From positions 23,010 through 87,009 of the forward strand of contig JACRML010000059.1 of assembly GCA_016214995.1 (NCBI GenBank): DNA of 64,000 nt, in the 5' to 3' direction. Both the position numbers and the translations under genes were made by a program. Below the pieces are notes generated by a model that saw nothing but the letters and a program-made list of their open reading frames with translations, searched no databases and was not told where the DNA came from. This DNA is from Deltaproteobacteria bacterium. Its GTDB lineage: Bacteria > Desulfobacterota > GWC2-55-46 > UBA9637. Positions 7,113 to 62,092 of the stretch are shown here, one piece after another. Every line of letters starts with the position of its first letter. Positions within the stretch are counted from its first letter, which is position 1.

Positions 7113-8417
7113 TCACTGCATTCTGCATATCGTCTCAAAGCGTTTTCTCCTCAAGAAGCGGCCAAGGTTTAATATAAGCGACTGCACCGGCCTTTTATGG
7201 CCTGCCCGCAGCATCCTTTTTGATATGGAAGGGATGGAGTAAAAATATTTATAGGCAAATATCAGACCGCTCAGAAGCTCCTCAGAAGTCAGTTTCGGAT
7301 GTTTAAACACTACATGATTGGCATCGTATTTATCCCACTCGGTATGCAGGAGTCTGCCCTCATCCTTCATCTCCTGAAATAGTTTTGTGCCAGGCAAGGG
7401 CGTAAGTATATAAAAATTCGCCGCATCCAGCTTTGCGTCAATTGCAAAATCCACAGTCTCCTTAAATACATTTTTATCATCCTCGTCAAGGCCAAAAATA
7501 AACGACCCGAATATGTTAATGCCTGCATCATGTATCTTTTTGAAAGATTCCTTATACTGCTTGACCTTGTTAAACGATTTTCTCATCTTTGCAAGGTTTT
7601 TTTCGGAAATAGATTCTATTCCTATAAATATCCACTGGCACCCGCTTTCAGCAGCAAGATTTAAGAGTTCCTTATCGTTTGCAATAAGGGAGTCTCCCTG
7701 GCATGACCACTTTTTTTTAAGCGGAACCATCTCCCTGAATAATTTTTTTGCGTATACCTTGTTGCCATACAGATTGTCATCAGCAAAAAAGACCATCCTG
7801 CCCTTAAGCGACTTTAATTCTTCTATGACCTCCGGTATCGGCCTGTATCTGAAACCTTTGCCCCAGAATGTTGTTACAGAACAGTAGTGGCAGTCATGCG
7901 GGCATCCGCGCGAAGCCATAAGCAGACTGCTTGAGAAATATCTATCCCGTTTTAACAAGTCCAGCCGTGGTCTCGGCAGATTTACCAACGTATGCTGGCC
8001 TGTACCTTTATATATCTTTTTCAGCCTGCTGTGTATAAAATCTTCCAACACAACCGGCCATACATCTTCCGCCTCGCCCAAAACAATAGAGTCTGCATAA
8101 TTTGCCGCCTCTTCAGGCAGCATTGAAACATGGATGCCGCCAAGGATTACAGGAACGCCCCTTTTCCTGAACTCCTGAGCTATCTCATAGGCGCGGGGGG
8201 CAAGCGCCGTCATGGTGGTTATTCCTACCAGGTCTGGCTTGGCGTCAAAATTAATATCCTCTATATTATCATCTACAATGGTGATTTCAAAACGGTTGTC
8301 AGTCAGGCCAGCAATGCTGGGAAGGCTTAATTGCGGAATAGGATATCTCCCCTTCTTTCTGTTGTCTCCGAGATTTTTTTTGTGTGCAGGATATATTAAT
8401 GTAAGTCTGTATTTCAA
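7113..8417 (-). CDS. B12-binding-domain radical SAM protein
   Basis: The N-terminal region resembles a cobalamin-binding Rossmann fold (DLVGITTMT...GVPVILGGIHVS), followed by the CPHDCHYC (CxxxCxxC) radical-SAM cluster motif. Confidence 0.85.
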   Translation of the reverse strand: MKYRLTLIYPAHKKNLGDNRKKGRYPIPQLSLPSIAGLTDNRFEITIVDDNIEDINFDAKPDLVGITTMTALAPRAYEIAQEFRKRGVPVILGGIHVSMLPEEAANYADSIVLGEAEDVWPVVLEDFIHSRLKKIYKGTGQHTLVNLPRPRLDLLKRDRYFSSSLLMASRGCPHDCHYCSVTTFWGKGFRYRPIPEVIEELKSLKGRMVFFADDNLYGNKVYAKKLFREMVPLKKKWSCQGDSLIANDKELLNLAAESGCQWIFIGIESISEKNLAKMRKSFNKVKQYKESFKKIHDAGINIFGSFIFGLDEDDKNVFKETVDFAIDAKLDAANFYILTPLPGTKLFQEMKDEGRLLHTEWDKYDANHVVFKHPKLTSEELLSGLIFAYKYFYSIPSISKRMLRAGHKRPVQSLILNLGRFLRRKRFETICRMQ

Positions 8418-8787: not shown

Positions 8788-8869
8788 ATTCAGGTTATGC
8801 TATTAACACAAATCCCCTAAAATGTGAAGCAGAAATATATTTCCCAAAATACCCGTTGCTTTATATTGG

Positions 8870-12965: not shown

Positions 12966-13355
12966 TTACCCCATTTCTCTTTCAATGTCTTTGATGGCCT
13001 TCTTTGATTCAAAGAAGACTCTGCCTAAAGGTTCGGCTTTCTCCAAGGTAACTACAAGATAGTAGCCTTCCTTAATAGTGGAAATGGCTATGGTGGCGAG
13101 TTCTGTGGATATACCTATTGTCTTGACACTATCCCCGATAAAAGTATTCGGAGACACGTTTTCTCCTTTTAAACGAGTCATAGCATCACGCGTAAGGTTC
13201 AGGATAATGCCTTTGTGGGCACCTATGGCAGGCAAGTCAATATCTGGAAACACTGGAAAATCTGCCACAGTCTCGCCTTCCCAGTCTAGGAGAATAGCAC
13301 CTGTGGCACCTGGCGTTTTTTCAACAAGTTTTTTTAATATGGCTTTGAAAGGCAT
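12966..13355 (-). CDS. Roadblock/LC7 (MglB-like) domain protein, orphan copy
   Basis: 129 aa; the pattern PGATGAILLDWEGETV...YYLVVTL is typical of the Roadblock/LC7 fold. Confidence 0.6.
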   Translation of the reverse strand: MPFKAILKKLVEKTPGATGAILLDWEGETVADFPVFPDIDLPAIGAHKGIILNLTRDAMTRLKGENVSPNTFIGDSVKTIGISTELATIAISTIKEGYYLVVTLEKAEPLGRVFFESKKAIKDIEREMG

Positions 13356-17288: not shown

Positions 17289-20000
17289 TCAACGTGAACT
17301 CTTAAGCACCGCATGCGCCGCAGCCAGCCGTGCTATCGGCACTCTGAAAGGGGAGCAGGATACATAGTTAAATCCGTTTCTGTGGCAGAACTCAACGGTG
17401 GCGGGGTCTCCACCGTGTTCGCCGCAGATACCTATTTTTAAATCTTTTCTTGTTTTTCTGCCTTTTTCGATAGCAATCTTTATGAGCATTCCCACTCCGT
17501 CCTGGTCAAGGGATTGGAACGGGTCGCTTTTCAAAATACCTGTCTTTTTTTCATCCACATAATCCGGCAAAAACCTTCCTGCGTCGTCCCTAGACATACC
17601 GAGAGTCATCTGGGTAAGGTCGTTTGTGCCGAATGAAAAGAATTCTGCAACATCTGCAATCTTATCTGCAAGGAGCGCTGCCCTCGGCACCTCAATCATT
17701 GTGCCGACAAGATATTTTAGTTTTACACCTTGCTCCTTTATAACCTTTTCAGCAATCTCACAGGTTTTTATCTCCAGTATTTTAAGTTCTTTGCCATCTA
17801 TGATAAGTGGATGCATTATTTCAGGATGCACCTTAACGCCTTCTTTTACGCATTCGCACGCAGCCTCAATAATTGCCCTTACCTGCATTTCAAGAATTTC
17901 CGGGTATGTAATGCAGAGACGGCAACCCCTGTGCCCAAGCATTGGATTTGCCTCTTTAAGCCTCTCAACACGTCGCCTTACCTGCTCATACGGAACGGCT
18001 ATCTTTTCAGCCAGATGTCTCTGCTCTCCCTCTGTATGAGGCACAAATTCATGCAATGGCGGGTCTATAAGCCGTATGGTGACTGGCTTGCCATTCATGG
18101 CCTTGAATATGCCTTTAAAATCCTCTCTCTGGAATGGGAGGAGTTTTGCAAGCGCGGTCTTTCTTGTTTCAAGGTCGTCCGCAACTATCATCTCCTGTAT
18201 AGCAAGACGACGCTCGTCGGTATCAAAAAACATATGCTCTGTCCTGCAAAGGCCTATGCCTTCAGCACCAAGCCTTATGGCATTTTCAGCATCATAAGGC
18301 GTGTCTACATTTGTTCTGACATTTAGTTTTCTTACTTCATCAGCCCACCTCATGAGTGTATAATATGCATCAGGCAGTTCCGGTTTTATAAGATTCATAC
18401 TGCCTTGAAACACCTCGCCTGCGGAACCGTTAATGGTTATCTCACTGCCCTCTCTCAGAACCTTGTTTCCTACAACAACAGTTTTATGGATGTAATCTAT
18501 AACAAGCTCTTCGCATCCTACAATGCAGCACTTGCCCCACCCCCTTGCAACAACCGCTGCATGCGATGTCTTTCCGCCTGTTGCTGTCAATATTCCCTGT
18601 GCAGCATGCATCCCGCCCACATCCTCAGGACTTGTCTCTTTTCTTACAAGAATTACCTTTTCACCTCTGCCTGCCCACTCCTCTGCATCCTTTGCATTAA
18701 ATACAACCTTGCCGCATGCAGCGCCGGGCACAGCGGCTATGCCTGCTGCAAAATGGTGCTTATTCAATTCATCTCTTGTTATTTTGGGGTCAATCACAGG
18801 ATAAAAAAGTCCTTCAATCTCTTTATCGGTAATCCTTAAGAGCGCCTCTTTCTTTGTTATGAGTTTTTCCTTTACCATGTCAACCGCCATACAAAACGCT
18901 GCGGTTGGAGAACGTTTGCCGGAACGGCATTGAAGGATGTAAAGCTTGCCTTCTTCAACAGTAAATTCTATATCCTGCATGTCTCTGTAATGTTTTTCAA
19001 GTTTTTTTCTTACATCACAAAGCTGCTTATATATATTTGGCATCATCCTGTTTAAATCACTCAGATGAATCGGGGTTCGAATGCCTGCAACAACATCCTC
19101 TCCCTGTGCATTCATGAGAAGGTCGCCGTAAAAAATATTCTCACCTGTATTAGGGTCCCTTGTAAAACAGACGCCTGTGCCGGATGTCTCGCCCCTGTTG
19201 CCAAATACCATCTGAACTATGTTCACTGCTGTACCGAGAAGCCCTGAAATCTTTTCCACACGGCGGTAGGTAACGGCCTTTTCAGCCATCCATGAGCCAA
19301 ACACAGCATTGATGGCGCCCCAAAGCTGCTCTGTCGGATCTTGCGGAAAATCTTTTTTGGTATGTTTTTTATAAACTGCCTTTAACAAAGGGATAAGCTC
19401 TTCCAGTTCCTGTTCATTTACATCTGTGTCAAGAACCTTTCCCCGATTACTGCCTTCGGGGACAAGATTTGTTATATTGAGTCTTTGCCTTGTCCTCATA
19501 TTTTTAATCCCTTCAAATTCATGTTCAAATTCATCACGATGAATACCCATTGCAATCGCGCCATACATCACAATAAACCTGCGGTAGGCATCCAGAGCAA
19601 ACCTGCGGTTATTTGTCTTTCTGGCAAGCCCTTCAACAGATTTATCATTAAGCCCTAAATTCAGAATGGTTTCCATCATGCCGGGCATTGATCTTGCCGC
19701 TCCTGAACGGACAGAGATAAGGAGAGGATCGTTATAATCTCCAAGTTTTTTGCCAACCAGTTTTTCAAGCCTTGCAAGGTTTTTGGCAACCTCTTTATCA
19801 AGCCCTGAGGGAAATTTGTTATTGTTCTTATAATAGAGGGCACAGACCTCTGTTGTTATGGTAAATCCTGCCGGTACAGGCAGACCTATGTTGGTCATCT
19901 CAGCTAAACCCGCGCCCTTGCCGCCAAGAAGCTCCTTCATGCCTCCTTTGCCCTCGGCCTTTCCCCCGCCAAAGAAATAAACAAATTTTTTAGATGCCAT
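17289..20000 (-). CDS. ppdK: Pyruvate, phosphate dikinase
   Basis: 903 aa with the phosphohistidine region GGKTSHAAVVARG and the PEP-utilising C-terminal domain (GICGEHGGDP). Confidence 0.95.
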   Translation of the reverse strand: MASKKFVYFFGGGKAEGKGGMKELLGGKGAGLAEMTNIGLPVPAGFTITTEVCALYYKNNNKFPSGLDKEVAKNLARLEKLVGKKLGDYNDPLLISVRSGAARSMPGMMETILNLGLNDKSVEGLARKTNNRRFALDAYRRFIVMYGAIAMGIHRDEFEHEFEGIKNMRTRQRLNITNLVPEGSNRGKVLDTDVNEQELEELIPLLKAVYKKHTKKDFPQDPTEQLWGAINAVFGSWMAEKAVTYRRVEKISGLLGTAVNIVQMVFGNRGETSGTGVCFTRDPNTGENIFYGDLLMNAQGEDVVAGIRTPIHLSDLNRMMPNIYKQLCDVRKKLEKHYRDMQDIEFTVEEGKLYILQCRSGKRSPTAAFCMAVDMVKEKLITKKEALLRITDKEIEGLFYPVIDPKITRDELNKHHFAAGIAAVPGAACGKVVFNAKDAEEWAGRGEKVILVRKETSPEDVGGMHAAQGILTATGGKTSHAAVVARGWGKCCIVGCEELVIDYIHKTVVVGNKVLREGSEITINGSAGEVFQGSMNLIKPELPDAYYTLMRWADEVRKLNVRTNVDTPYDAENAIRLGAEGIGLCRTEHMFFDTDERRLAIQEMIVADDLETRKTALAKLLPFQREDFKGIFKAMNGKPVTIRLIDPPLHEFVPHTEGEQRHLAEKIAVPYEQVRRRVERLKEANPMLGHRGCRLCITYPEILEMQVRAIIEAACECVKEGVKVHPEIMHPLIIDGKELKILEIKTCEIAEKVIKEQGVKLKYLVGTMIEVPRAALLADKIADVAEFFSFGTNDLTQMTLGMSRDDAGRFLPDYVDEKKTGILKSDPFQSLDQDGVGMLIKIAIEKGRKTRKDLKIGICGEHGGDPATVEFCHRNGFNYVSCSPFRVPIARLAAAHAVLKSSR

Positions 20001-21188: not shown

Positions 21189-21644
21189 TTAACCGCCTAA
21201 AACCTCTTTCACCACTTCATTTACCAGCTTGCCATCTGCCTTTCCAGCAACCTTCGGCATAACATCCTTCATAACCCTGCCAATATCCTTGGGTCCTGAG
21301 ATCTGAAGATTTTTTACAATATCACTAACAATACCCTTTATTTCATCTCTGGAAAGCTGAGGAGGAAGAAAGGATTGTAGGATTTTTAGTTCAGCCTCTT
21401 CTTTATCCACCAAATCCTGCCTGCCGCCCTTCTTAAACTGATATATAGACTCAAGGCTTTGCTTTAGCATGGTCTTAATAACAGCAACAACTTCTTCATC
21501 GCTTAAACCTTCTGCCCGCTTGATGAGTGCTATCTCCTTGTTTTTCACTTGAGCCAGAATATTGCGAAGCGCCCCAAGCCTCGTTTTATCCTGAGCCTTG
21601 GCCGCTTCATTCATATGCTTAACCAGATTTTCTCGTAGAGACAT
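21189..21644 (-). CDS. GatB/YqeY-domain protein
   Basis: LRENLVKHMNEAAKAQDKTRLGALRNILAQVKNKEI... is a typical YqeY N-terminus. The gene is adjacent to rpsU, as in many bacteria. Confidence 0.85.
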   Translation of the reverse strand: MSLRENLVKHMNEAAKAQDKTRLGALRNILAQVKNKEIALIKRAEGLSDEEVVAVIKTMLKQSLESIYQFKKGGRQDLVDKEEAELKILQSFLPPQLSRDEIKGIVSDIVKNLQISGPKDIGRVMKDVMPKVAGKADGKLVNEVVKEVLGG

Positions 21645-21652
21645 AGTAACTC

Positions 21653-21742
21653 CGTAGGCGGTAAGCAGTAGGCAGTAAGGAGTAAGTAGTAAAACCTTCC
21701 TTTCTTTTTTCTGTATACTGCATTCTGCTTACTCCTTACTGT
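21653..21742. repeat. Heptamer-periodic inverted array (intercistronic hairpin) between the yqeY-like gene and rpsU
   Basis: The left arm is TAGGCGG TAAGCAG TAGGCAG TAAGGAG TAAGTAG. The right arm contains the complement CTTACTCCTTACTG and TACTGCATTCTGCTTAC. Confidence 0.75.
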
Positions 21743-21745
21743 ATT

Positions 21746-29317: not shown

Positions 29318-29400
29318 AATTTAAAAAGGATGAGGATGAGGTTAAGGCTGAGGAAATCTTCTCCTTAACCTTGACCTCAACCTTAATCTTATTTCTTAAT

Positions 29401-29523
29401 GGTTACTATTGATAGCTAGGTATCCTTGCGGCACATAGAAGATGTTGCTACCGTTGCTTCCTTCCGGACCTGGCGGGGTTTGCAAACTTTCTATTGCGCA
29501 AGACCCAGCTATCAATACTAACC
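29401..29523 (-). ncRNA. ffs: Signal recognition particle RNA (small, 4.5S-type)
   Basis: On the minus strand a long helix closed by GGTTAGTATTGATAGCTGGG / CCTAGCTATCAATAGTAACC encloses the universal domain IV sequence CCAGGTCCGGAAGGAAGCAACGGTAG. It lies just upstream of dnaX, as in many bacteria. Confidence 0.85.
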
Positions 29524-29627
29524 ACAAGATTACAGTGAACAGTGAATAGTTGTCAGTCGTCAGTATTAGATATATCTTTTCGTTTTTTACTATTCACCAA
29601 TCACTGTTCACCATTCACTGCCTTTAA
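29524..29627. repeat. Heptamer-periodic inverted array between tRNA-Ser(GGA) and ffs
   Basis: ACAGTGA ACAGTGA ATAGTTG TCAGTCG TCAGTAT ... TTACTAT TCACCAA TCACTGT TCACCAT TCACTGC. Confidence 0.8.
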
Positions 29628-29720
29628 TGGCGGAGAGAGAGGGATTTGAACCCTCGGTACACCTTTTGGATGCACACACGATTTCCAGTCGTGCTCCTTC
29701 AACCGCTCGGACATCTCTCC
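29628..29720 (-). tRNA. tRNA-Ser (anticodon GGA)
   Basis: 93-nt cloverleaf folded by hand: acceptor GGAGAGA/TCTCTCC, anticodon stem CACGA/TCGTG with loop CTGGAAA, a long variable arm, T-loop GTTCAAATC, and an encoded CCA. Confidence 0.9.
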
Positions 29721-29797
29721 ATTAACTGCAGTGGTCAGTGAACAGTGTTCGGTTACCTGCTGACCACTCACCACTACCCACTGGTCACTGCCTTTAA

Positions 29798-34737: not shown

Positions 34738-35957
34738 AAAGATTCGGGAGTCAGAAATCAAAAGTCAAAAATCAGAAGGTTTTTATTCCATTCTATCTTA
34801 TCTGTCTCCTTCTTTCTCTACCTGCCTGCGTTAAAGATATTTCTTCTTCCTTTTCTAACAACGGAGAAAAGATAAAGGTTGCGGTATTAAAAAATGTGCA
34901 GGATTTAAAAATAGAAGGGGCTGCCGCGGTAGAGGCAGACGGCCGCCCATTATTCCTTCAGTCTGATAAACATGTACCCGAAGGCTTTAATAGGGGAGGT
35001 GTCTCACGACCTACCTTCAACCCAATCACGATTGCATTGGAAGAATCAAATACCTTAACAGCAAATAACAGCAAGATAGATGGTTCAAAAGTGGTATTTT
35101 TCTCAGACAATGGCATACTCTATTTAAACGGCCGCAAATACAGAGGCAAGATGGAAGTTATAAAAGAACAGAAAGGACTGCTGGTTGTAAATGAGCTGCC
35201 ATTAGAGTTTTATGTGGCCGGCCTCATCAACCACGAGATATCATCAAAATGGCCTATGGAGGTTGTAAAAACGCAGGCTGTTATAGCAAGGACATACGCC
35301 GTTTATCAAAAGAAAAAAAGAAACGGCTGGACATATCACATTGAATCAACTGTTGCAGATCAGGTTTACGCAGGTAGCACTGCCGAGGATGACCGCTCTT
35401 TTTATGCAGTTAAGGAGACTGTCGGCGAGGTATTGACCTATAACGGAGAATTTGCCCTGACCGTATATCATTCAAATGGCGGCGGCATGACAGAGGACTC
35501 TAAAAATGTCTGGGGTGGGGATTATCCGTATCTGGGGCAGGTAAAGAGCCCGTTTGACAAAGACTCTCTGAATTTTTCATGGACTCTCAATATAACCCCG
35601 CAAAACATTGAATCGGCATTGAAAGACGCAAGCTATTCCATAACAGATATAAAAGATATAACACCTTTACATAAGACAAATAGCGGCAGGGTAACAAAGT
35701 TAATAATATATCACAGCAATGGTATTACAGATATAACAGGCGAGGATTTAAGAAAGGCTATCGGCTATGACAAACTTAAGAGCACTATGTTTACTGTTGA
35801 AGCAATAAACGGCTCATTTGTTTTTAAGGGAAAAGGCTTTGGCCACGGTGTTGGGCTGTCTCAGTGGGGCGCTAAAGGCATGGCAGAAAAAGGCTACGGT
35901 TATAGAGATATATTGGAGCATTTCTATCCAGGCACAAGGATAGAACGAATATACTAA
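34734..35957 (+). CDS. SpoIID/LytB-domain protein (lytic transglycosylase-like), lipoprotein
   Basis: An in-frame TTG at 34734 gives MKRFGSQ...FYLICLLLSLPAC (lipobox). SpoIID motifs follow (NELPLEFYVAGLINHE, YHSNGGG, GFGHGVGLSQWGA). There is a 4-nt overlap with the DUF2065 stop. Confidence 0.8.
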   Translation: MKRFGSQKSKVKNQKVFIPFYLICLLLSLPACVKDISSSFSNNGEKIKVAVLKNVQDLKIEGAAAVEADGRPLFLQSDKHVPEGFNRGGVSRPTFNPITIALEESNTLTANNSKIDGSKVVFFSDNGILYLNGRKYRGKMEVIKEQKGLLVVNELPLEFYVAGLINHEISSKWPMEVVKTQAVIARTYAVYQKKKRNGWTYHIESTVADQVYAGSTAEDDRSFYAVKETVGEVLTYNGEFALTVYHSNGGGMTEDSKNVWGGDYPYLGQVKSPFDKDSLNFSWTLNITPQNIESALKDASYSITDIKDITPLHKTNSGRVTKLIIYHSNGITDITGEDLRKAIGYDKLKSTMFTVEAINGSFVFKGKGFGHGVGLSQWGAKGMAEKGYGYRDILEHFYPGTRIERIY

Positions 35958-37069
35958 TGCGGCTTGAGGATTTTAACTATCATCTACCAAAAGAACTTAT
36001 TGCCCAGCTTCCCTGTGAGAGACGAGATAAATCAAAATTGATGATACTCCACAAGAAAGACGGGACAGTTGAACATAGAATTTTTTTTGAATTGACAGAC
36101 TATCTTAAACCGGGAGATGTTCTTGTATTAAACAATACAAAGGTTATCCCTGCAAGGCTCTTTGGAAATAAAATAACAGGCGGAGCAATAGAGGTCCTCT
36201 TAATACAAAAATTAGAAATAAGAAATCAGGAATCAGAAATTTCACACCCTGCTTACCACATCCCACATCCCACATCCCAAACATGGCGTTGTTTGATAAA
36301 CTCATCAAAGGGTCTAAAACAAGGCTCTGATGTTTTTTTTGAATCGGGGCTAAATGGCAGGATTATAGAAAAAGCGAATGATGGCAGTTGGATTATTGAG
36401 CTTTACGCTGCTGTTGAAATTGATAAGGCAATAGAGCAGATTGGAAGAATGCCTCTGCCTCGTTATATTAAAAGGAGGCAGATGGCAGTGGGCAGTGGGC
36501 AAGATAGAATCTCTGAACTTGACAGAGAAAGATATCAAACAGTCTTTGCAAAAGAGAAAGGAGCAATTGCAGCCCCAACCGCAGGATTGCATTTTACCGA
36601 TGAGCTTTTAAAAAAAACTCAGGAACTTGGGGTGCAGATTTTTTACATAACCCTGCATACTGGTTTGGGCACATTTAAACCAGTAAAAACAGAGGATATA
36701 ACAAAGCATAAGATAGAGTCAGAATATTACAAGGTTGCTGCTGCTACATTTGAAACTATTAAAAAGGCAAAACATGAAAACAGGAGAATTATTGCTGTCG
36801 GCTCAACAGTTGCAAAAACATTGGAGACAATTGTAAGGCGTAGCTGGGAGGAACCAAACTTGAGCGGCTATACAGACCTGTTTATCTATCCTGGATACAA
36901 ATTTAATGCAGCAGATGCGCTGATAACAAATTTTCATCTCCCTAAATCAACCTTGTTTATGCTTGTATCAGCATTTGCAGGAAAAGACTTGGTAAGGAAA
37001 GCCTACCAGGAGGCCATAAAGCAAGGCTATAGGTTTTTCAGCTATGGCGATGCAATGATGATAATATGA
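35957..37069 (+). CDS. queA: S-adenosylmethionine:tRNA ribosyltransferase-isomerase
   Basis: MRLEDFNYHLPKELIAQ, PTAGLHFT and FFSYGDAMMI are present, with end-to-end QueA similarity apart from the low-complexity inserts. Confidence 0.95.
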   Translation: MRLEDFNYHLPKELIAQLPCERRDKSKLMILHKKDGTVEHRIFFELTDYLKPGDVLVLNNTKVIPARLFGNKITGGAIEVLLIQKLEIRNQESEISHPAYHIPHPTSQTWRCLINSSKGLKQGSDVFFESGLNGRIIEKANDGSWIIELYAAVEIDKAIEQIGRMPLPRYIKRRQMAVGSGQDRISELDRERYQTVFAKEKGAIAAPTAGLHFTDELLKKTQELGVQIFYITLHTGLGTFKPVKTEDITKHKIESEYYKVAAATFETIKKAKHENRRIIAVGSTVAKTLETIVRRSWEEPNLSGYTDLFIYPGYKFNAADALITNFHLPKSTLFMLVSAFAGKDLVRKAYQEAIKQGYRFFSYGDAMMII

Positions 37070-37399
37070 ATCCTTACATATGTTCGAAATCATATGGCAA
37101 GCCGAAATAGCAATAATCGGTAGCATTGTCAAGAGGAGACCTATAGTCAATGACATAAATAAGCAGATAGCTTTTTTAAATAAATTTCTAATTTCCAAAT
37201 CCTAATTTCTAATAAAAAGTCAAATATCAAATAAAAATCAACACATTGAAATTTTAGTCATTGAACATTTTATTGAAAATTAGGCATTAGGATTTAGAAA
37301 TTGTAGTTAGACATTATCCATGTCTCCAATATTCTACGCTACCAAATATTTAACCCTTTATTTTTATTTCGCTATAAGATATTATTCTGCGGATAATAA

Positions 37400-38539
<1,140 letters not shown>

Positions 38540-42877: not shown

Positions 42878-43080
42878 ATAGTCAACGATAAAAATAAGTA
42901 GATGCTACAATAAAATTCCTAATTTCTAAATCCTAATTTCTAATAACAAATGAAACTTCAAGGCTTGATTTTTTAATTTTATTAGAAATTAGAAATTAGA
43001 ACTTAGGAATTCTTCTAATGTTTCATTAGAAACATGTCCCCGAAGGCCTTCATCGGGGATTAGACATTAGGATTTAGGAT
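42878..43080 (+). repeat. Conserved 37-nt box (ATAGTCAACGATAAAAATAAGTAGATGCTACAATAAA) plus long CTAATTTCTAA-type heptamer hairpin, copy 1
   Basis: The box recurs, reverse-complemented on the plus strand, at 59757-59793 and 62055-62091, each time next to the same kind of hairpin. Confidence 0.75.
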
Positions 43081-43373: not shown

Positions 43374-43895
43374 TTAACCTGTTTTCACTTTCTTTTTCAC
43401 CCATTTCATCAACCCGCCTGTATTTATAAGCTCTTGCATAAACGGAGGGATTGCCTGAGCCTTAAAGATTTGCGATTTACGATTTTCGATTTGCGATTGC
43501 ATAATGGCAATCTCGCCACTGTTTAAATCTATTTCTACTTCATCACCTTCTTTTATGGCGTCCACTGCCTCAGGGCATTCCAATATCGGCAAACCCATGT
43601 TGAATGAATTGCGGTAAAATATTCTGGCAAAGCTCTTTGCGATGACGCATGAAACCCCCACTGCTTTTATGGCAATGGGCGCATGTTCCCTTGATGAACC
43701 GCAGCCAAAATTTTTATCAGCAACAATGATATCTCCGGGCTTCATCTTATTTACAAATTGCTGGTCTGCATCCTCCATACAGTGTCTTGCAAGCTCTTTC
43801 GGATCAGATGTATTTAAATATCTTGCCGGTATAATCTGGTCGGTATCAATATCTGCACTAAACTTCCACGCCTTACCTTTGAATTTCATACCCAC
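43374..43895 (-). CDS. leuD: 3-isopropylmalate dehydratase small subunit
   Basis: [25 protein letters not shown] and the C-terminal GGL..W pattern of short-type LeuD. Confidence 0.9.
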
Positions 43896-47890: not shown

Positions 47891-48785
47891 TCACCTTTCC
47901 TTATGATGCAACTCCTGTTGTGCTACTGCTTTCTTTGCCCTTCTATCCAACAGGGTAGTTATTGGTCCTGATACTGCATAACCCAGTGTCAGCACAAAAA
48001 ACATCACCTGTGGTTCTGCGGCTATAACAATAAGCAAAAATATCAATCCTACCAACAGCCTGAATGGCATACGCTGTGCAGGATTTAATTCCTTGAAGCT
48101 GTAATATTTGACATTGCTCACCATGAGGAATGCAAGGGCATAAACCATAATCAATATGGTTATATGTTTGGTGATATCCTCATAGCCGAAATGATAAAAT
48201 ATCAACACGGTTGCGGCTACAAGAGAAGCAGCAGCAGGAATCGGCAGGCCGTTGAACCTTTTGCTCTCAATGGTATTTATCTGTATATTGAACCTGGCAA
48301 GTCTTAATGCCCCGCACACCACATACAAAAATGCAGCCAGCCAGCCATACCGGTCAAAAGGCCGCAGCGCCCATGTAAATATTAATATGCCAGGTGCAAG
48401 TCCAAATGCTATCAGATCTGACAACGAATCATACTCAATACCAAACTTGCTTGTTGACTTTGTAAGTCTCGCAATTCTCCCGTCTAACCCATCCAATACA
48501 GCAGATATAAGTATAGCAATAGCTGCCTTGTCAAATTCCCAACGAATCATACTCAACGCCAAACTTGCTTGTTGACTTTGTAAGTCTCGCAATTCTTCCG
48601 TCTAACCCATCCAATACAGCAGATATAAGTATAGCAATAGCTGCCTTGTCAAATTCCCCATCCAGAGATGCGATGATGGAATAAAACCCTCCGAAAAGAC
48701 TAGCTGATGTAATGAGGTTAGGAAGAAGGTATATCCCTCTTTTTATGCCGCCTTTTTGCCTTGTCTTTAAATTTTCATCTATCAT
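47891..48785 (-). pseudogene. pssA: CDP-diacylglycerol--serine O-phosphatidyltransferase, reading frame split by a 118-bp tandem duplication
   Basis: ORFs 48531..48785 and 47891..48592 both encode EFDKAAIAILISAVLDGLDGRIARLTKSTSKFG(V/I)EYDSL. The first ORF stops 2 codons after the duplication junction. The CDP-alcohol phosphatidyltransferase motif DG..R...G...D...D is complete only in the second ORF. Confidence 0.75.
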
Positions 48786-49503: not shown

Positions 49504-49576
49504 CCCCTATTTAGGAGATAGGCGGTGGGAAGTAGGAAGTGGGCAAAACAAAATCCCACATCCCACATCCCACATC

Positions 49577-50734
<1,158 letters not shown>

Positions 50735-51223: not shown

Positions 51224-51322
51224 CCTTCCACCCAACCACAGGAATCAGGAAATAGGAATTAAAAATTAGAAAAACTCTTTTCTATTTCCTCTTTTCTCTT
51301 TCCTTCCACCTTTCATCTGTCT

Positions 51323-55204: not shown

Positions 55205-55339
55205 ATATTACTAGTTTAACAGATATTAGTATAACATCTTTTGCTTGTCAACCCGAGAAAATACAGGTTAAGATTGAGGTAAAGGTTTAGAATTTCCTCA
55301 ACCTTAACCTCAACCTTAACCTTGACCTTAACCTTGACC

Positions 55340-56074
55340 TTAGCCTTTCCTCATCTTAAGTTCTGCCTCTGAGGGTCTCAGATATTTAAGCTCAACAGTT
55401 TGAGGGCTGTCACTATCCCCATTTTTAAATCTCTTCCATGCCAGCAAGCCGATGTTTGATGCCTTTATTGTCCACAGATACTCGGGGGCAATAATAGCCT
55501 TATCCTTTAGCATAGCTTTAATAGGATTTCCATATACCTTTAGACCATCACCAAGAAATATTGTCGACTTTGTTATTCTCTCAATAAGTGCTTCAGGGCT
55601 TAAGGCAGCATCGGGCATAAGACAAGTTGCAAGCTGCAGGCCGCAGGTTTCAAGTCTATCATTATCTTGCATCTTGAAACTTGCATCTTGAAACTTGTAG
55701 ATACCCGCATAAACCTCTTTTTTCCGCGCATCCAACAAAGGGCATATCTGTTTGTCAGAATAAGGCAGATTCATTGCCAGCGCCTCTAAAGTTGAGACGC
55801 AAACCACCTTCTTGTTTAAACTCCATGCAAGCCCCTTGATAGTTGAAAGTCCAATCCGCAGCCCTGTAAAAGAACCCGGTCCTGCAGCTAGTGCAAAACC
55901 ATCAACATCTTCTATGCTTGCACCAATACCATGCAGAAGGGTTTTTATTGAAGGCAGCAGTCTCTCTGCATGGGTTTCTTGAATACAGGTTGTTAATTCA
56001 GCAATGAGCCGGCCATCTTCAAGCAGTGCAATGCTCCCTGACGCAGTGGCAGTATCTATAGCAAGTATTTTCAT
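55340..56074 (-). CDS. tsaB: tRNA threonylcarbamoyladenosine biosynthesis protein TsaB
   Basis: MKILAIDTATASGSIALLEDG and GPGSFTGLRIG are present. Confidence 0.9.
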   Translation of the reverse strand: MKILAIDTATASGSIALLEDGRLIAELTTCIQETHAERLLPSIKTLLHGIGASIEDVDGFALAAGPGSFTGLRIGLSTIKGLAWSLNKKVVCVSTLEALAMNLPYSDKQICPLLDARKKEVYAGIYKFQDASFKMQDNDRLETCGLQLATCLMPDAALSPEALIERITKSTIFLGDGLKVYGNPIKAMLKDKAIIAPEYLWTIKASNIGLLAWKRFKNGDSDSPQTVELKYLRPSEAELKMRKG

Positions 56075-56161: not shown

Positions 56162-57559
56162 TTAATTTATCAATCTACGTAAAAACCCAATTATATCTAG
56201 CCGCATCACATCGTTGTATGTCACAAATAGCATCAATAAAACCAGAAGACCAATTCCTATATTCTGGGTCATGGTCATAATCCTCTCGCTCAATGGCTTG
56301 CCCCGGAGCGCCTCTATGCCAAAGAATATAAGAAAACCACCATCCAGAACAGGGATTGGTAATAGGTTCAATATGCCCAACTGCAGGCTTAAGAATGCCA
56401 TGAGAGAAAGAAGCGCTGTCAGGCCTGACTCAGCAGCCTGTCCTGCCACCTGAGCAATCATTAAAGGGCCGCCAAGTGTTTTAATGGATATCTCTCCGAC
56501 AAAAAGCTTTTTTATAATTACAAATGTCATTATGGTTAATTCGCCCATCTTTTTTACCCCCTCAACAACTGCTCCAGCAGGGCCATAACGTCTTGTAACC
56601 GTATCCTGAAAAGGTGATACACCTATTGCATATCCCTTTATGTTTTCATTCCACTGCGACTTAATGCGGAGTTCAAATATCTCATTCCCTCTTTTTACCT
56701 GAAAAAGTCTTTCCTCTGCTGCTTCTTTCTTTTCAGTTTCTGGTTTCTGGCCTCTTGCTTCTTGTTTCTGACTTCCTGCTTCTTGCTTCTGACTCTGGAT
56801 TGCCTGTTGGAGTTCTATCCAGTGGTCTATCTTAACCCCGTCAACAGAAAGGATTGTATCGCCAATCTTTAGCCCGGCTTTTTCAGCAGGCAATCCTTGA
56901 ATAAGCCCGCCCACAGTAGGACTCATGGGAGGGAAAAATCCGCTAACCCCTCCACCGGTTTGAGAAGAGGCTTCGGGGGTAAATGTAATATCTTGAACCC
57001 TACCATTATTTTTAACTATGAGTTTGAGCGCTTTATTCGGGTTGGAGATAATAGCGGTATTAAGCTCCTCCCAGTTTTTAATATACGTGCCGTCTATTGA
57101 TTCTATTACATCTCCCTTTTTTAAACCTGCCTTATCGGCATTTTCACCCATCACAACATAGCCGACTATAGGCTCTTTATCCAAATATGCAGGAACTTGG
57201 ATTCCTATGAGGTATATAAGCGGCAGAAGCGAAAATGCCAGAGTAAGGTTCATTATCGGCCCTGCTGCAACTATTGCCGCCTTTTTTGAAAGAGGTTTCT
57301 TGGCAAATGATCTTTCATTGTCAGTTGGGCTTACCTCTTCACCGGTTGATTCACCAACCATCTTCACATAGCCACCGAGCGGCAGAAGGGATATTAGATA
57401 TTCTGTTTCACCCCTTTTTACGCCGATTATCTTAGGCCCGAAACCGAGGGAAAATTTTAACACTCCGACCCCTGAAAGCTTTGCAATAATAAAGTGGCCA
57501 AGTTCATGTATAAAAACTAAAATACCGAGAACTACTAAAAATGATATAACCGTTGTCAT
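56162..57559 (-). CDS. rseP: RIP (site-2) zinc metalloprotease RseP
   Basis: HELGHF, two PDZ-like regions (GLKKGDVI, GLKIGDTI) and the C-terminal NLLPIPVLDGG motif. Confidence 0.9.
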   Translation of the reverse strand: MTTVISFLVVLGILVFIHELGHFIIAKLSGVGVLKFSLGFGPKIIGVKRGETEYLISLLPLGGYVKMVGESTGEEVSPTDNERSFAKKPLSKKAAIVAAGPIMNLTLAFSLLPLIYLIGIQVPAYLDKEPIVGYVVMGENADKAGLKKGDVIESIDGTYIKNWEELNTAIISNPNKALKLIVKNNGRVQDITFTPEASSQTGGGVSGFFPPMSPTVGGLIQGLPAEKAGLKIGDTILSVDGVKIDHWIELQQAIQSQKQEAGSQKQEARGQKPETEKKEAAEERLFQVKRGNEIFELRIKSQWNENIKGYAIGVSPFQDTVTRRYGPAGAVVEGVKKMGELTIMTFVIIKKLFVGEISIKTLGGPLMIAQVAGQAAESGLTALLSLMAFLSLQLGILNLLPIPVLDGGFLIFFGIEALRGKPLSERIMTMTQNIGIGLLVLLMLFVTYNDVMRLDIIGFLRRLIN

Positions 57560-57606: not shown

Positions 57607-58827
57607 TTACTGCCTATTACTTATTTTTTTTACTATCTCCTTTGCCAATTCTCTGGCACATTTATCAGCTTCCAATATTTCTTCCAATTGTGATGTGCTG
57701 GGCGCTGAGCGCTGAATTTTAGATTTTTTATTCTGGCTTCTGGCTTCCGGCTTCTGGCTTCTGTATTTTTCCATCGTGTCTTCTACAATCTCCGTTATAT
57801 CTGTAAATTTAATTTTCTTCTCTAAAAACGCCTCCACTGCAACTTCGTCAGCGGCATTCAGCACTGCCGGCATAACACCGCCTGTCTTTATTGCCTCATA
57901 TGCAAGCCTAAGCGCCGGGAATCTGTCTTTGTCAGGCTCCATAAATGTAAGTTTATCCATTTTACAAAGGTCAAGCGAACCAATACCGCAGTCAATTCTC
58001 TCATCAGGATAGGTAAGGGCGTAAGATATAGGCCCTTTCATATCCGTTGGCCCAAGTTGGGCCACAATAGAACCGTCAATATATTCAACCATAGAATGAA
58101 CAACGCTCTGAGGATGGATGTGGACGCCTATCTTTTCAGGCAGCATATCAAAAAGCCACATAGCCTCAATTACCTCCAAACCTTTATTCATAAGCGTTGC
58201 TGAATCTATGGTAACCTTTTTACCCATCTTCCACTTTGGATGATTCAATGCCTGTTCATGGGTGATGTCTGACAACTTTTCAATAGGCAGGTTTAAAAAA
58301 GGGCCGCCGGATGCAGTTAGTATCAGTCTTTTTATGTCTCCCTTTTTATGACCCACAAGAGACTGAAATATGGCGCTGTGTTCGCTGTCAATGGGAAGAA
58401 GGTTAATCTTATTTTTTTTGACCTCCTTCATCACTAATCCACCTGCCATAACAAGAACCTCTTTATTAGCAAGGGCAATATCTTTTTTTGCTTTTATAGC
58501 AGCCAGGGTCGGTGCAAGGCCACTTGCCCCAACCAGTGCAGAGACCACCAAATCCACACCGCAGGTAGCTGTTTCGAGCAAACCATCGTCTCCATAATAA
58601 GATTTAGGTTTATATGATAAATCTAGTTTTAATTCATTGATGTCTTTTGCATCTGTAAGCGATATAACCTTTGGCTTGAATTCCTTTATCTGCCTTTTGA
58701 ACAGGTCTTTATTCCTACCTGCTGCAAGGGCTATTATCTTAAATCTGTCTGGATGCCTTCTGACAATCTCAAGGGTGCTCTGGCCTATAGAACCTGTAGA
58801 GCCAAGAATTGCAAGTTTTTTTGCCAT
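57607..58827 (-). CDS. dxr: 1-deoxy-D-xylulose 5-phosphate reductoisomerase
   Basis: LAILGSTGSIGQSTL, LANKE, PIDSEHSAIFQ and NKGLEVIEA motifs. Confidence 0.95.
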   Translation of the reverse strand: MAKKLAILGSTGSIGQSTLEIVRRHPDRFKIIALAAGRNKDLFKRQIKEFKPKVISLTDAKDINELKLDLSYKPKSYYGDDGLLETATCGVDLVVSALVGASGLAPTLAAIKAKKDIALANKEVLVMAGGLVMKEVKKNKINLLPIDSEHSAIFQSLVGHKKGDIKRLILTASGGPFLNLPIEKLSDITHEQALNHPKWKMGKKVTIDSATLMNKGLEVIEAMWLFDMLPEKIGVHIHPQSVVHSMVEYIDGSIVAQLGPTDMKGPISYALTYPDERIDCGIGSLDLCKMDKLTFMEPDKDRFPALRLAYEAIKTGGVMPAVLNAADEVAVEAFLEKKIKFTDITEIVEDTMEKYRSQKPEARSQNKKSKIQRSAPSTSQLEEILEADKCARELAKEIVKKISNRQ

Positions 58828-59640: not shown

Positions 59641-59793
59641 AAGTAATTTCTAATGAAATGTCCAATGACTAAATTTCCAACCTGCCTGTGCTATGGCAGA
59701 CAGGTGTTTTTTGATATTTAACATTTTATTGGAAATTAGGATTTAGAAATTAGAAATTTATTCTAGTATCTACTTATATTTGTCATTGACTAT
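59641..59793 (-). repeat. 37-nt box plus heptamer hairpin, copy 2 (between uppS and cdsA)
   Basis: Near-identical to copy 3 over most of its length. The uppS TAG stop lies inside the box. Confidence 0.8.
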
Positions 59794-61894: not shown

Positions 61895-61944
61895 AAAACC
61901 TCCGTGTTTATAGTGAACGACTTAAATAAGTTGACATGGTATTA

Positions 61945-62092
61945 AGAAATCCTAAATCCTAATGTCTAATTTCTAATGAATGTCCAATGACTAAATTTCC
62001 AATGTTTTTTGACATTTGACATTTTATTAGAAATTAGGATTTAGAAATTAGAAATTTATTGTAGTATCTACTTATTTTTGTCGTTGACTATA
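61945..62092 (-). repeat. 37-nt box plus heptamer hairpin, copy 3 (between ribBA and ribH)
   Basis: Near-identical to copy 2. The box starts 3 nt after the ribBA stop. Confidence 0.8.

Follow-up and report, generated by a model that had tools for sequence, protein, structure and literature searches.

We describe three arrays of tandemly repeated heptamers inside the queA gene of an uncultured bacterium labelled "Deltaproteobacteria bacterium", together with similar arrays in the surrounding DNA and in related genomes. The gene is located in a 64-kb stretch of contig JACRML010000059.1, which was analyzed in its full length and is here called the window. An uninterrupted open reading frame (ORF) on the plus strand (35957-37069), as identified in the ORF list, encodes a protein of 370 amino acids, and homologs in the Pfam family Queuosine_synth (PF02547) align across 100% of its length. 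All 57 invariant columns in an alignment of 37 QueA sequences are kept in this protein, and the comparison with the Thermotoga QueA (PDB 1VKY) gave an E-value of 4e-103. As judged from these alignments, the product is a full-length QueA (S-adenosylmethionine:tRNA ribosyltransferase-isomerase), and the gene is intact and presumably functional. An exact-match lookup of the protein recorded no entry. The neighborhood consists of SpoIID-queA-tgt-yajC-secDF, with the same gene order in the closest relative, L081 (contig JACRNJ010000075 of GCA_016219285.1), a metagenome-assembled "Deltaproteobacteria bacterium" genome.

The three in-frame arrays, which had been noticed in a first-pass annotation of the window, were recovered both from the sequence and from the ORF translation, all on the plus strand. 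Array 1 (36214-36241) reads AGAAATA AGAAATC AGGAATC AGAAATT when taken directly from the sequence, but begins one unit earlier in the register CAGAAAT (CAAAAAT TAGAAAT AAGAAAT CAGGAAT CAGAAAT T, 36206-36241), where it encodes approximately residues 84-95 (QKLEIRNQESEI). A 14-nt spacer, TCACACCCTGCTTA (36242-36255), separates it from array 2 (36256-36283), which consists of three CCACATC units and CCAAACA and encodes residues 100-109 (YHIPHPTSQT). The relatives L082, L087, L081 and L085 have the CCTGC core of this spacer as well, either in their own spacer or in a REP-like hairpin at the corresponding site. Array 3 (GGCAGAT GGCAGTG GGCAGTG GGCAAGA, 36477-36504) encodes residues 174-183 (RQMAVGSGQD). 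The QueA translation thus includes ...LEIRNQESEISHPAYHIPHPTSQTW... and ...RRQMAVGSGQDR... at the array stretches. At period 7, Tandem Repeats Finder reported 4.6 copies with 84% matches for array 1, 3.4 copies with 100% matches for array 2 and 2.6 copies with 100% matches for array 3. The expected number of arrays in a gene of 1.1 kb is about 0.03, as compared to the three observed in queA.

A perfect (ATTAGAA)n repeat in the frame of array 1 would read AAA TTA GAA ATT AGA AAT TAG, and would hence contain an in-frame stop codon. At the position of the would-be TAG, the window has AAT CAG and L082 has AAT GAG, so that the "imperfections" of array 1 are the letters needed to dodge the stop codon. 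In array 1, the first two units coincide with the native QueA codons for Q-K-L-E (QKLE in the outgroup P0036, ERLE in 1VKY), and in array 2, the last unit coincides with codons for S-Q-T that are kept even in clade members without array 2. The arrays are thus not pure insertions. They are also old and common to the relatives rather than private to the window genome.

Extra residues were identified in the window QueA at exactly two places, with 19 and 18 additional residues around positions 89-107 (site 1) and 13 and 11 around positions 174-186 (site 3) relative to the solved structures of the Thermotoga (1VKY) and Bacillus (1YY3) enzymes, respectively. The outgroup homologs of QueA have short loops at both sites. 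The encoded stretches had been suggested to lack a counterpart in other phyla, which these gaps support, although E. coli QueA itself was not among the proteins compared; no orthologs from unrelated phyla with homologous residues at these positions were found, nor any evidence that queA is a pseudogene with an intact paralog elsewhere. In an AlphaFold2 model based on the 37-sequence alignment (mean predicted local distance difference test score, pLDDT, of 73), strands 77-89 and 106-115 form a beta-hairpin with site 1 at its tip (pLDDT below 50 at residues 91-103), and site 3 is part of a coil (pLDDT below 50 at residues 175-178). The first-pass prediction of surface loops is in agreement with this model, and the arrays occupy two places where the structure is permissive: the beta-hairpin tip belongs to the small domain, and site 3 to the linker that precedes the D-x-E-R-Y-Q-T motif. 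Two other features of the protein deserve mention. Codons 169-171 of the window gene (36461-36469) lie within a PLPRYI motif, with R where at least 90% of the 37 homologs have P (PLPPYI). Furthermore, six QueA proteins of the clade (P0021, P0022, P0027-P0030) contain an in-frame insert, NPP(I/S)PP(L/F)..KGG.GGF, after ...LETMV (alignment A1, columns 523-551). This insert, at a third QueA site, resembles the translation of another small palindromic repeat, and it is lacking in the window QueA.

We compared the two sites in eight relatives by cutting the DNA between conserved anchors (...E[VI]LL and W.CL for site 1, PLPPYI and RYQT for site 3). The relatives differ in word, copy number and content at both sites. 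Site 1 ranges from 36 nt without periodicity in L089, 39 nt with ATA(CAGAAGT)(CAGCAGT)(CAGAAGT)3A in L086 and 45 nt with only (CCCCACA)2(TCCCACA)2... in L088 to 60 nt with only an AGAAAT-type array in L087. In L081 and L085 the site covers 66 nt, in which a CAGAAGT array is split by a 27-nt hairpin; in the window and L082 it covers 81 nt, with an AGAAAT-type array, the spacer and (CCACATC)3; and in L090 it covers 105 nt, with two AGAAAT units plus unrelated sequence. Site 3 covers 42-66 nt and contains (GGGGCAA)n in L081 and L086, (GAGGCAA)n in L082 and (GGCAGTG)n in the window, while the array is absent in L085, L087, L089 and L090. Since the orthologous site carries a different word in L081, L086 and L082, the word of array 3 has changed in a concerted way. 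Length steps of 21 nt, corresponding to three units, are found between 81 and 60 nt and between 60 and 39 nt at site 1, and between 66 and 45 nt at site 3. The alleles at the same site encode unrelated peptides (e.g., SEVRSQKSEV), but the peptide HIPHPTSQT is conserved in three lineages.

All nine alleles, those of the window and the eight relatives, are in frame, and all site 1 lengths are multiples of 3. This bears on whether queA could be a contingency locus, in which the gain or loss of one unit would shift the frame and switch the gene on or off by phase variation. A unit length that is not a multiple of 3 and the perfect repeat in array 2 are what such a switch would call for, but none of the short tracts exceeds 3.4 perfect units, arrays 1 and 3 have imperfections, and arrays of the same kind are present in the essential genes dxr and rseP, where on/off switching would be lethal. 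Nor was any indel variant observed in four groundwater metagenome runs of one study that contain the window queA, where the data are assembler contigs of low depth (4-6) from which rare variants have been dropped. Taken together with the nine in-frame alleles, these observations make a phase-variation switch hardly credible. In two of the independent runs, contigs of 518 and 528 nt that are identical to the window span all three arrays, and shorter exact contigs were found in two more. With homologous arrays in eight independently assembled relatives, we consider the probability of an assembly or sequencing artifact to be negligible. In runs X1 and X3, the region 36050-36700 of the window also recruited sequences from a co-occurring L081-like organism that is two- to three-fold more abundant. 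The queA gene of this organism differs from that of the window mainly at the two array sites, where it lacks 15 nt (site 1) and 12 nt (site 3), and its base changes match L081.

The queA arrays are part of an excess of repeats that is specific to period 7. A strict period scan of the window identified 26 period-7 arrays, as compared to 0-1 in shuffled sequences; other periods (3-13 and 15) yielded 0-3 arrays each, and period 14, which is twice 7, yielded 24. A looser scan recovered 49 period-7 arrays, as compared to 1-5 in the shuffles. The number of arrays per 10 kb is 4.1 in the window, 7.1 in L081 and 4.4-5.2 in L082-L084, which are three contigs that carry a QueA of 68% identity. In 80 unrelated genomes, which served as negative controls (80 loci, 647 kb, from relatives at 44-50% QueA identity among the matches listed), the density is only 0.17. 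The array density is thus 24-40 times higher in this lineage, whose members are uncultured bacteria from groundwater that form a clade and carry the label "Deltaproteobacteria bacterium". No period-7 arrays were found in the 2.6 and 12.8 kb scanned from the clade members L089 and L090. In the looser scan of the window, 32 of the 49 arrays are intergenic or located at ORF edges, which together account for about 10.5 kb (16% of the DNA), while the remaining 17 are inside ORFs (53 kb). Arrays are thus about 10 times sparser inside ORFs than between them. At least 37 distinct canonical array words are present in the 64 kb. The queA arrays and the population to which they belong share with heptameric simple-sequence repeats of the cyanobacterial STRR and Geobacter "H4" type the head-to-tail 7-nt units, the number of units (about 3-5), the period-7 excess, the restriction to the lineage and a distribution that is for the most part intergenic.

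The intergenic arrays are mostly inverted pairs that fold as hairpins, whereas the intragenic arrays are single and unstructured. In a long run of minus-strand genes, nearly every intergenic spacer contains an element with inverted heptamer-array arms. RNA folding of such elements gave z-scores of -7.7 for the element at 42910-43015 and -4.4 for the queA-tgt spacer, whereas for the arrays within queA and tgt the shuffled sequences folded better than the originals (z = +1.2, +2.0 and +1.4). Arrays 1 and 2 have the arm-spacer-arm layout of an intergenic element, but the stretch that covers both of them folds worse than its shuffles (z = +1.16), and the "arms" in queA are therefore not complementary, exactly as noted at the outset. 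We also considered whether array 1 might pair at long range with the left arm of the hairpin 3' of queA, but set this aside, as the energy of -16.7 kcal/mol is surpassed by better partners elsewhere in the window.

The hairpin in the queA-tgt spacer (37183-37302, inverted repeat I4) has the arms (AATTTCT)n and (AGAAATT)n, and belongs to a dispersed family of elements of about 120 nt. Members of this AGAAATT-armed family were identified in the window at 37175-37310, 42905-43015 and 61940-62060, together with half an element at 59700-59770, and three copies that are 84-90% identical are located in the metagenome contig L128 (5480-5606, 6194-6320 and 8071-8192). The arms, (AATTTCT/AAATCCT)n ... 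(ATTAGAA/TTAGGAT)n, and the outer flanks (..TTATTGTAG and CTACAATAA..) are conserved, while the centers are variable. Between queA and tgt in L081 (9619-10047) there is a GIY-YIG ORF of 97 amino acids; the corresponding gap in the window (37070-37399) contains only the heptamer-armed hairpin and no such ORF.

The words of the arrays are shared to an extent that is not expected by chance. Among the arrays of the window, 14 pairs have identical words, as compared to 1.6-2.2 expected for random 7-mers (maximum 8), and 13 of 21 arrays in L081 share a word with an array in the window, as compared to 1.5 expected (maximum 5), although some of these are positional orthologs. The similarity in style and words between the queA arrays and the arms of intergenic hairpins, which was noted in the first-pass annotation, is thereby upheld, and AGAAATT is itself the arm word of the 120-nt family. 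Two specific words named there were indeed found in intergenic arrays: the word CCACATC of array 2 recurs on the same strand in an array directly 3' of the ilvC stop codon ((ATCCCAC)x3.6, 49553-49577), with an identical (CCACATC)n stretch of 22 nt, and the word AGGAATC of array 1 is found in one arm (CAGGAATCAGGAAATAGGAAT..., 51239-51272) of an intergenic hairpin at 51239-51301. Exact (CCACATC)3 is however cosmopolitan, being present in more than 120 metagenome contigs with a GC content from 35% to 70%, and the shared CCACATC word alone is for this reason weak evidence of a common origin. As proof of a common element, it was accordingly downgraded.

Arrays 1 and 2 are conserved at the level of codons. 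Between the window and L082, the rest of queA is 69% identical at the nucleotide level and 47% identical at third positions, as compared to 83% and 93% for arrays 1 and 2, respectively, with 90% identity at third positions. For the closest relative, L081, the situation is the opposite: the rest of queA is 88% identical (79% at third positions), whereas arrays 1 and 2 are only 42-47% identical. Where the residues in the arrays are identical, the same codon is used in 13 of 15 cases in the comparison with L082 (8 of 8 for array 2 alone) and in 8 of 8 cases in the comparison with L088 (8 of 9 when counted for array 2), as compared to 45-50% in the rest of the gene (binomial P of about 0.001 and 0.004, respectively, for pairs that are not phylogenetically independent). 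The composites of the window and L082 are colinear and of equal length, but their spacers are identical at only about 50% of the positions and the flanking sequences have diverged to the usual extent, which makes a recent recombination tract unlikely. That two arrays are conserved down to their codons is the one observation for which ordinary slippage offers no explanation. Either a constraint acts on the array words in DNA or RNA, or the words are reset from dispersed copies.

A conserved peptide could in principle point to selection on the protein, with the loops providing QueA with a new function such as the binding of tRNA or of a partner, and the peptide HIPHPTSQT in three lineages is the observation that such a scenario would explain. 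The conservation reaches synonymous positions and preserves the 7-nt periodicity, however, unrelated peptides occupy the same site in other relatives, identical words are found outside coding sequences as well as in genes for unrelated proteins, and the loops have low confidence in the structural model. An adaptation at the protein level is thus highly unlikely. Our best reading is that the queA arrays are neither adaptive features of the protein nor a switch for phase variation.

The excess of codon conservation over what the protein requires, as well as a restricted vocabulary that is common to several genomes, would also be expected if the words were functional cis-elements. They could then be bound by a protein such as HU or IHF, or by complementary RNA arms, and the intragenic arrays would take part in regulation, in the fate of the mRNA or in the structure of the chromosome. 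For paired tandem 7-9-mers of a similar kind in Geobacter metallireducens, a role as binding sites of a global regulator has been proposed (PMC2700814). We nevertheless consider a cis-element to be unlikely, since the 37 or more distinct words in 64 kb are too many for one sequence-specific binder, different words occupy the same site in L081, and array 3 has drifted in concert. Moreover, the left arm of the hairpin 3' of queA pairs less well with array 1 (-16.7 kcal/mol) than with the opposite arm of the hairpin itself (-23.5 kcal/mol), and none of the hairpin elements matched a family in Rfam 15 at the gathering score, with only the SRP RNA and two tRNA-Ser genes recovered from the window.

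In-frame arrays of the same type were identified in five other genes of the window. The tgt gene contains an in-frame (GTTCACA)x4.9 array (37931-37964, plus strand), at the only hypervariable site in a protein that is otherwise 91% identical between the window and L081; the aligned loop in a solved Tgt structure is 3 residues shorter. At the same site in L081 (10560-10700), there is an in-frame hairpin insert of 136 nt (z = -3.4), which is 36 residues longer than the insert in the window. On the minus strand, a GATTTGC-like array is located in leuD (43467-43498), with (AGATTTG)x4 at the orthologous place in L081, and two arrays are located in a TsaD-family gene (PF00814, 55623-55697). Also on this strand, arrays with the words GTTTCTG and CTTCTTG are located past the second PDZ domain in the M50 protease gene rseP (56736-56790), and arrays with TTCTGGC (x4.7) and GCTGAGC in the C-terminal domain of dxr (57697-57763). 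In dxr, the match to the Pfam domain DXPR_C covers 136 residues for 114 profile positions, and the alignment to the PDB structure stops at residue 362. In related metagenome contigs, (CCACATC)4-5 was recovered in frame in a CbiX-CbiC fusion, an AddA-like helicase, a ribonucleotide reductase and a CobQ-like protein. The interdomain linker of the CbiX-CbiC fusion in the contigs L119 (225-325) and L143 contains (CAGAAGT)5, 18 nt and (TCCCACA)5, which mirrors site 1 of queA and is the sole other locus known to have a queA-type composite. A second array, (CCACATC)4, is located inside CbiC (683-711 in L119, also in L143), and both CCACATC arrays in L119 are followed by AGATTGCGG.

The 27-nt REP-like hairpin that splits the queA array in L081 and L085 consists of CNTG, a 7-bp stem, a 9-nt loop near AGGCTTTAA and the stem complement, and the stems in the two relatives differ in a compensatory manner (CCCTCGA/TCGAGGG and CCCCTGC/GCAGGGG). 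No match to the L085 hairpin was found in the window within 3 mismatches, though related copies were recovered with a covariance model (R1) that was built from five copies and gave scores of 16-48 bits. Matches to R1 in the window are located on the minus strand at 19435-19470 (29 bits) and 13128-13162 (26 bits), with a weak match at 34967-35002 (16 bits) inside SpoIID, where it encodes the peptide PEGFNRGG. Hairpins of the R1 type were also identified at 43029-43064 in the window, at 8798-8833, 2602-2711, 7543-7578 and 15797-15832 in L081 and at 667-702 in L085, as well as in L086 and L090; the two copies at 2602-2711 in L081 are flanked by CAGAAGT units. The 27-nt hairpin is thus present both between genes and in frame within genes (queA of two relatives and SpoIID), often within heptamer arrays.

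Several of these observations would fit with mobile cassettes, in which case the arrays would have arrived ready-made, as heptamer-armed hairpins or as a unit of array, REP-like hairpin and array, and have been inserted in frame, in the manner of Rickettsia palindromic elements, or introduced by gene conversion, without local growth by slippage. The composite in the CbiX-CbiC linker, the compensatory hairpin inside the queA array of L081 and L085, the further 27-nt hairpins in and between genes recovered by the covariance model (two of which lie between CAGAAGT units) and the AGAAATT-armed hairpin with four copies in the window and three in L128 all point in this direction. So do the whole hairpin element inserted in frame in tgt of L081 and the conflict between the array phylogeny and the gene phylogeny. 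For the queA arrays themselves, on the other hand, we found neither a transposase nor a target-site duplication nor conserved termini, array 1 begins on the native QKLE codons and array 2 ends on the clade-conserved SQT codons, and the colinear composites of equal length with a diverged spacer in the window and L082 look vertically inherited. Word identity is a weak argument in view of the wide distribution of (CCACATC)n across contigs of 35-70% GC. We regard the arrival of ready-made cassettes as less probable than our main explanation, but as a competitor to be taken seriously.

We consider it probable, albeit far from certain, that the arrays in queA are intragenic members of the lineage-wide population of heptamer repeats, which is a phenomenon at the DNA level that is tolerated in permissive loops. 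Heptamer repeats, typically of 4-5 units, would be made and maintained at the DNA level by slippage and/or by small dispersed elements. Individual arrays would gain or lose 7-nt units by slipped-strand mispairing, starting from or recruiting native codons. Coding DNA would act as a filter for a net multiple of 3 (typically three units, 21 nt or 7 residues), for letters without stop codons and for structural harmlessness, and because of this filter the arrays would survive only in loops and linkers. The encoded peptides would then be passenger loops that are not selected for what they encode; we infer that slippage generates the arrays and that they are neutral for the activity of QueA.

Four observations weigh against this explanation. 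The ready-made composite in the CbiX-CbiC linker of L119 and L143 and the dispersed AGAAATT-armed hairpins point to a transfer of pieces rather than to purely local growth. Neutral slippage alone is insufficient to explain the near identity of arrays 1 and 2 with the arrays in relatives whose synonymous positions are saturated, when the closest relative has other words. Several of the length differences among the alleles (9, 15 and 27 nt) are not multiples of 21. Finally, and more weakly, no polymorphism in unit number was seen in the contigs from the four metagenome runs at a depth of 4-6.

A bolder proposal, which we find improbable, is that the heptamer words constitute a genome-wide code that is read in a sequence-specific manner, with coding loops of housekeeping enzymes co-opted as sites in the network. 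Such a code would fit with the exact codons that arrays 1 and 2 retain in comparisons with relatives at saturated synonymous positions, and with a vocabulary that recurs in several genomes, within genes as well as between them. A lineage-specific system would then write or maintain the words, either by a word-templated activity that adds or corrects repeats or by a nucleic-acid-guided binder that uses the hairpin arms. If so, the 21-nt steps of heptamer slippage would, as a by-product, naturally generate diversity in protein loops.

Additional repeat features were observed in the window. The tRNA-Ser GGA gene (29628-29720, minus strand) is located in the loop of a hairpin (29589-29753) with heptamer-array arms of CACTGTT and ACAGTGA. 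The gene for the SRP RNA (29411-29510) is flanked by the hexamer arrays AGGATG (29327-29354) and CCTTAA (29363-29391). Another hexamer array, CCTTAA x8.7 (55296-55347), overlaps the 3' end of the TsaD-family gene (55340-56074, minus strand) and pairs with units of the AGGTTAAG type at 55265-55290. A 118-nt unit is present in two tandem copies of 97% identity at 48422-48658, overlapping the 5' end of the minus-strand ORF 47891-48592 and its upstream DNA. The window element at 21640-21745 and the element between yajC and secD in L081 have one word in common, not the whole element.

Heptameric repeats are over-represented among simple repeats in bacteria, and polymerase slippage has been proposed as their origin, as summarized in a study that also cites heptanucleotides in Calothrix (PMC4692102). 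The G-rich heptamers GGGAATC and GGGGAYT in Xanthomonas and Nostoc (Rehm et al., 2015, PMC4692102) are similar to the arrays described here in that about four units are preferred, most arrays are located between genes and sometimes form inverted pairs, and length and sequence vary at conserved positions between closely related species. The TAACTGA direct repeats of marine Beggiatoaceae (MacGregor, 2015, PMC4679880) likewise have 2-6 heptamer copies that are mostly intergenic, with a minority in ORFs at the periphery of the proteins and a coding orientation that is limited by stop codons. In contrast to our arrays, which have many words and paired arms, they consist of a single word located mostly just upstream of start codons and show no hairpin pairing. 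Intragenic elements of four heptanucleotides (GGACCGG x4) are known from G. metallireducens, which also contains paired tandem 7-9-mers on opposite strands between genes, including the five-unit MTYCTGA (Aklujkar et al., 2009, PMC2700814). The similarities include arrays of about 4-5 heptamers in many copies, other classes that occur as opposite-strand intergenic pairs and a host classified as a deltaproteobacterium. The consensus MTYCTGA of class 3 in Geobacter also includes CTTCTGA, which is the reverse complement of TCAGAAG, found at site 1 of queA in L081, L085 and L086. Unlike the few GC-rich families in Geobacter with one consensus word each, there are dozens of words here, of which the common ones are AT-rich. 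The Geobacter paper reports no ortholog-by-ortholog comparison, structural mapping or codon-level analysis, and the function, as regulatory RNA or as sites for IHF/HU, is only proposed. The complement of array 2, GGGATGT, resembles the G-rich heptamer words of Xanthomonas and Nostoc. A G-quadruplex reading of arrays 2 and 3 was rejected for the window, as the motif that defines these G-rich heptamers, at least four G3 tracts with 1-7 nt between them, is absent from both of its strands. Such a motif is present in some of the orthologous alleles, namely in L082 and L088 (antisense) and in L086 (sense).

Heterocystous cyanobacteria contain short tandemly repeated repetitive (STRR) heptamers, with which our arrays share the lineage-wide excess, the use of several words and the mostly intergenic location, while the phylum and the words differ. 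Small dispersed repeats are reportedly nested in the cyanobacterial heptamer repeats. These are elements of 21-27 nt capable of forming hairpins, to which the 27-nt hairpin in the (CAGAAGT)n arrays of queA in L081 and L085, and at 43029-43064 in the window, would be similar. The Rickettsia palindromic elements (RPE) are reported to be 100-150 nt long, with a conserved consensus, and to be located in frame in protein genes. They are selfish repeats at surface positions of housekeeping proteins, translated without destroying the function. The queA arrays have in common with RPE the presence/absence polymorphism among orthologs, the surface positions (as indicated by alignment gaps and low pLDDT values) and the kept frame, but unlike the reportedly palindromic RPE, they are 28-nt arrays that are non-palindromic (z = +1.2 and +2.0). 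The insert in tgt of L081 is a closer analog; an inverted repeat is present in this insert (z = -3.4) and in the 27-nt hairpin of queA in L081 and L085.

The arrays belong to a kind that is already known from the cyanobacterial STRR repeats and from the intragenic elements of four heptamers in Geobacter. The record of this single locus is unusually detailed, and the conservation of two arrays at the codon level stands out as its unexplained feature. The queA gene provides a natural example of how a DNA-level repeat process enters essential genes, with differing repeat alleles in the same two loops of one enzyme. The arrays mark loops in QueA, Tgt, Dxr and RseP that tolerate insertions, and for annotators, they indicate that odd low-complexity peptides in metagenome-assembled genomes of this clade are derived from repeats. 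The heptamer-repeat phenomenon, as seen in cyanobacteria, Beggiatoaceae, Xanthomonas and Geobacter, is hereby extended to an uncultured groundwater lineage in which orthologous arrays can be compared.

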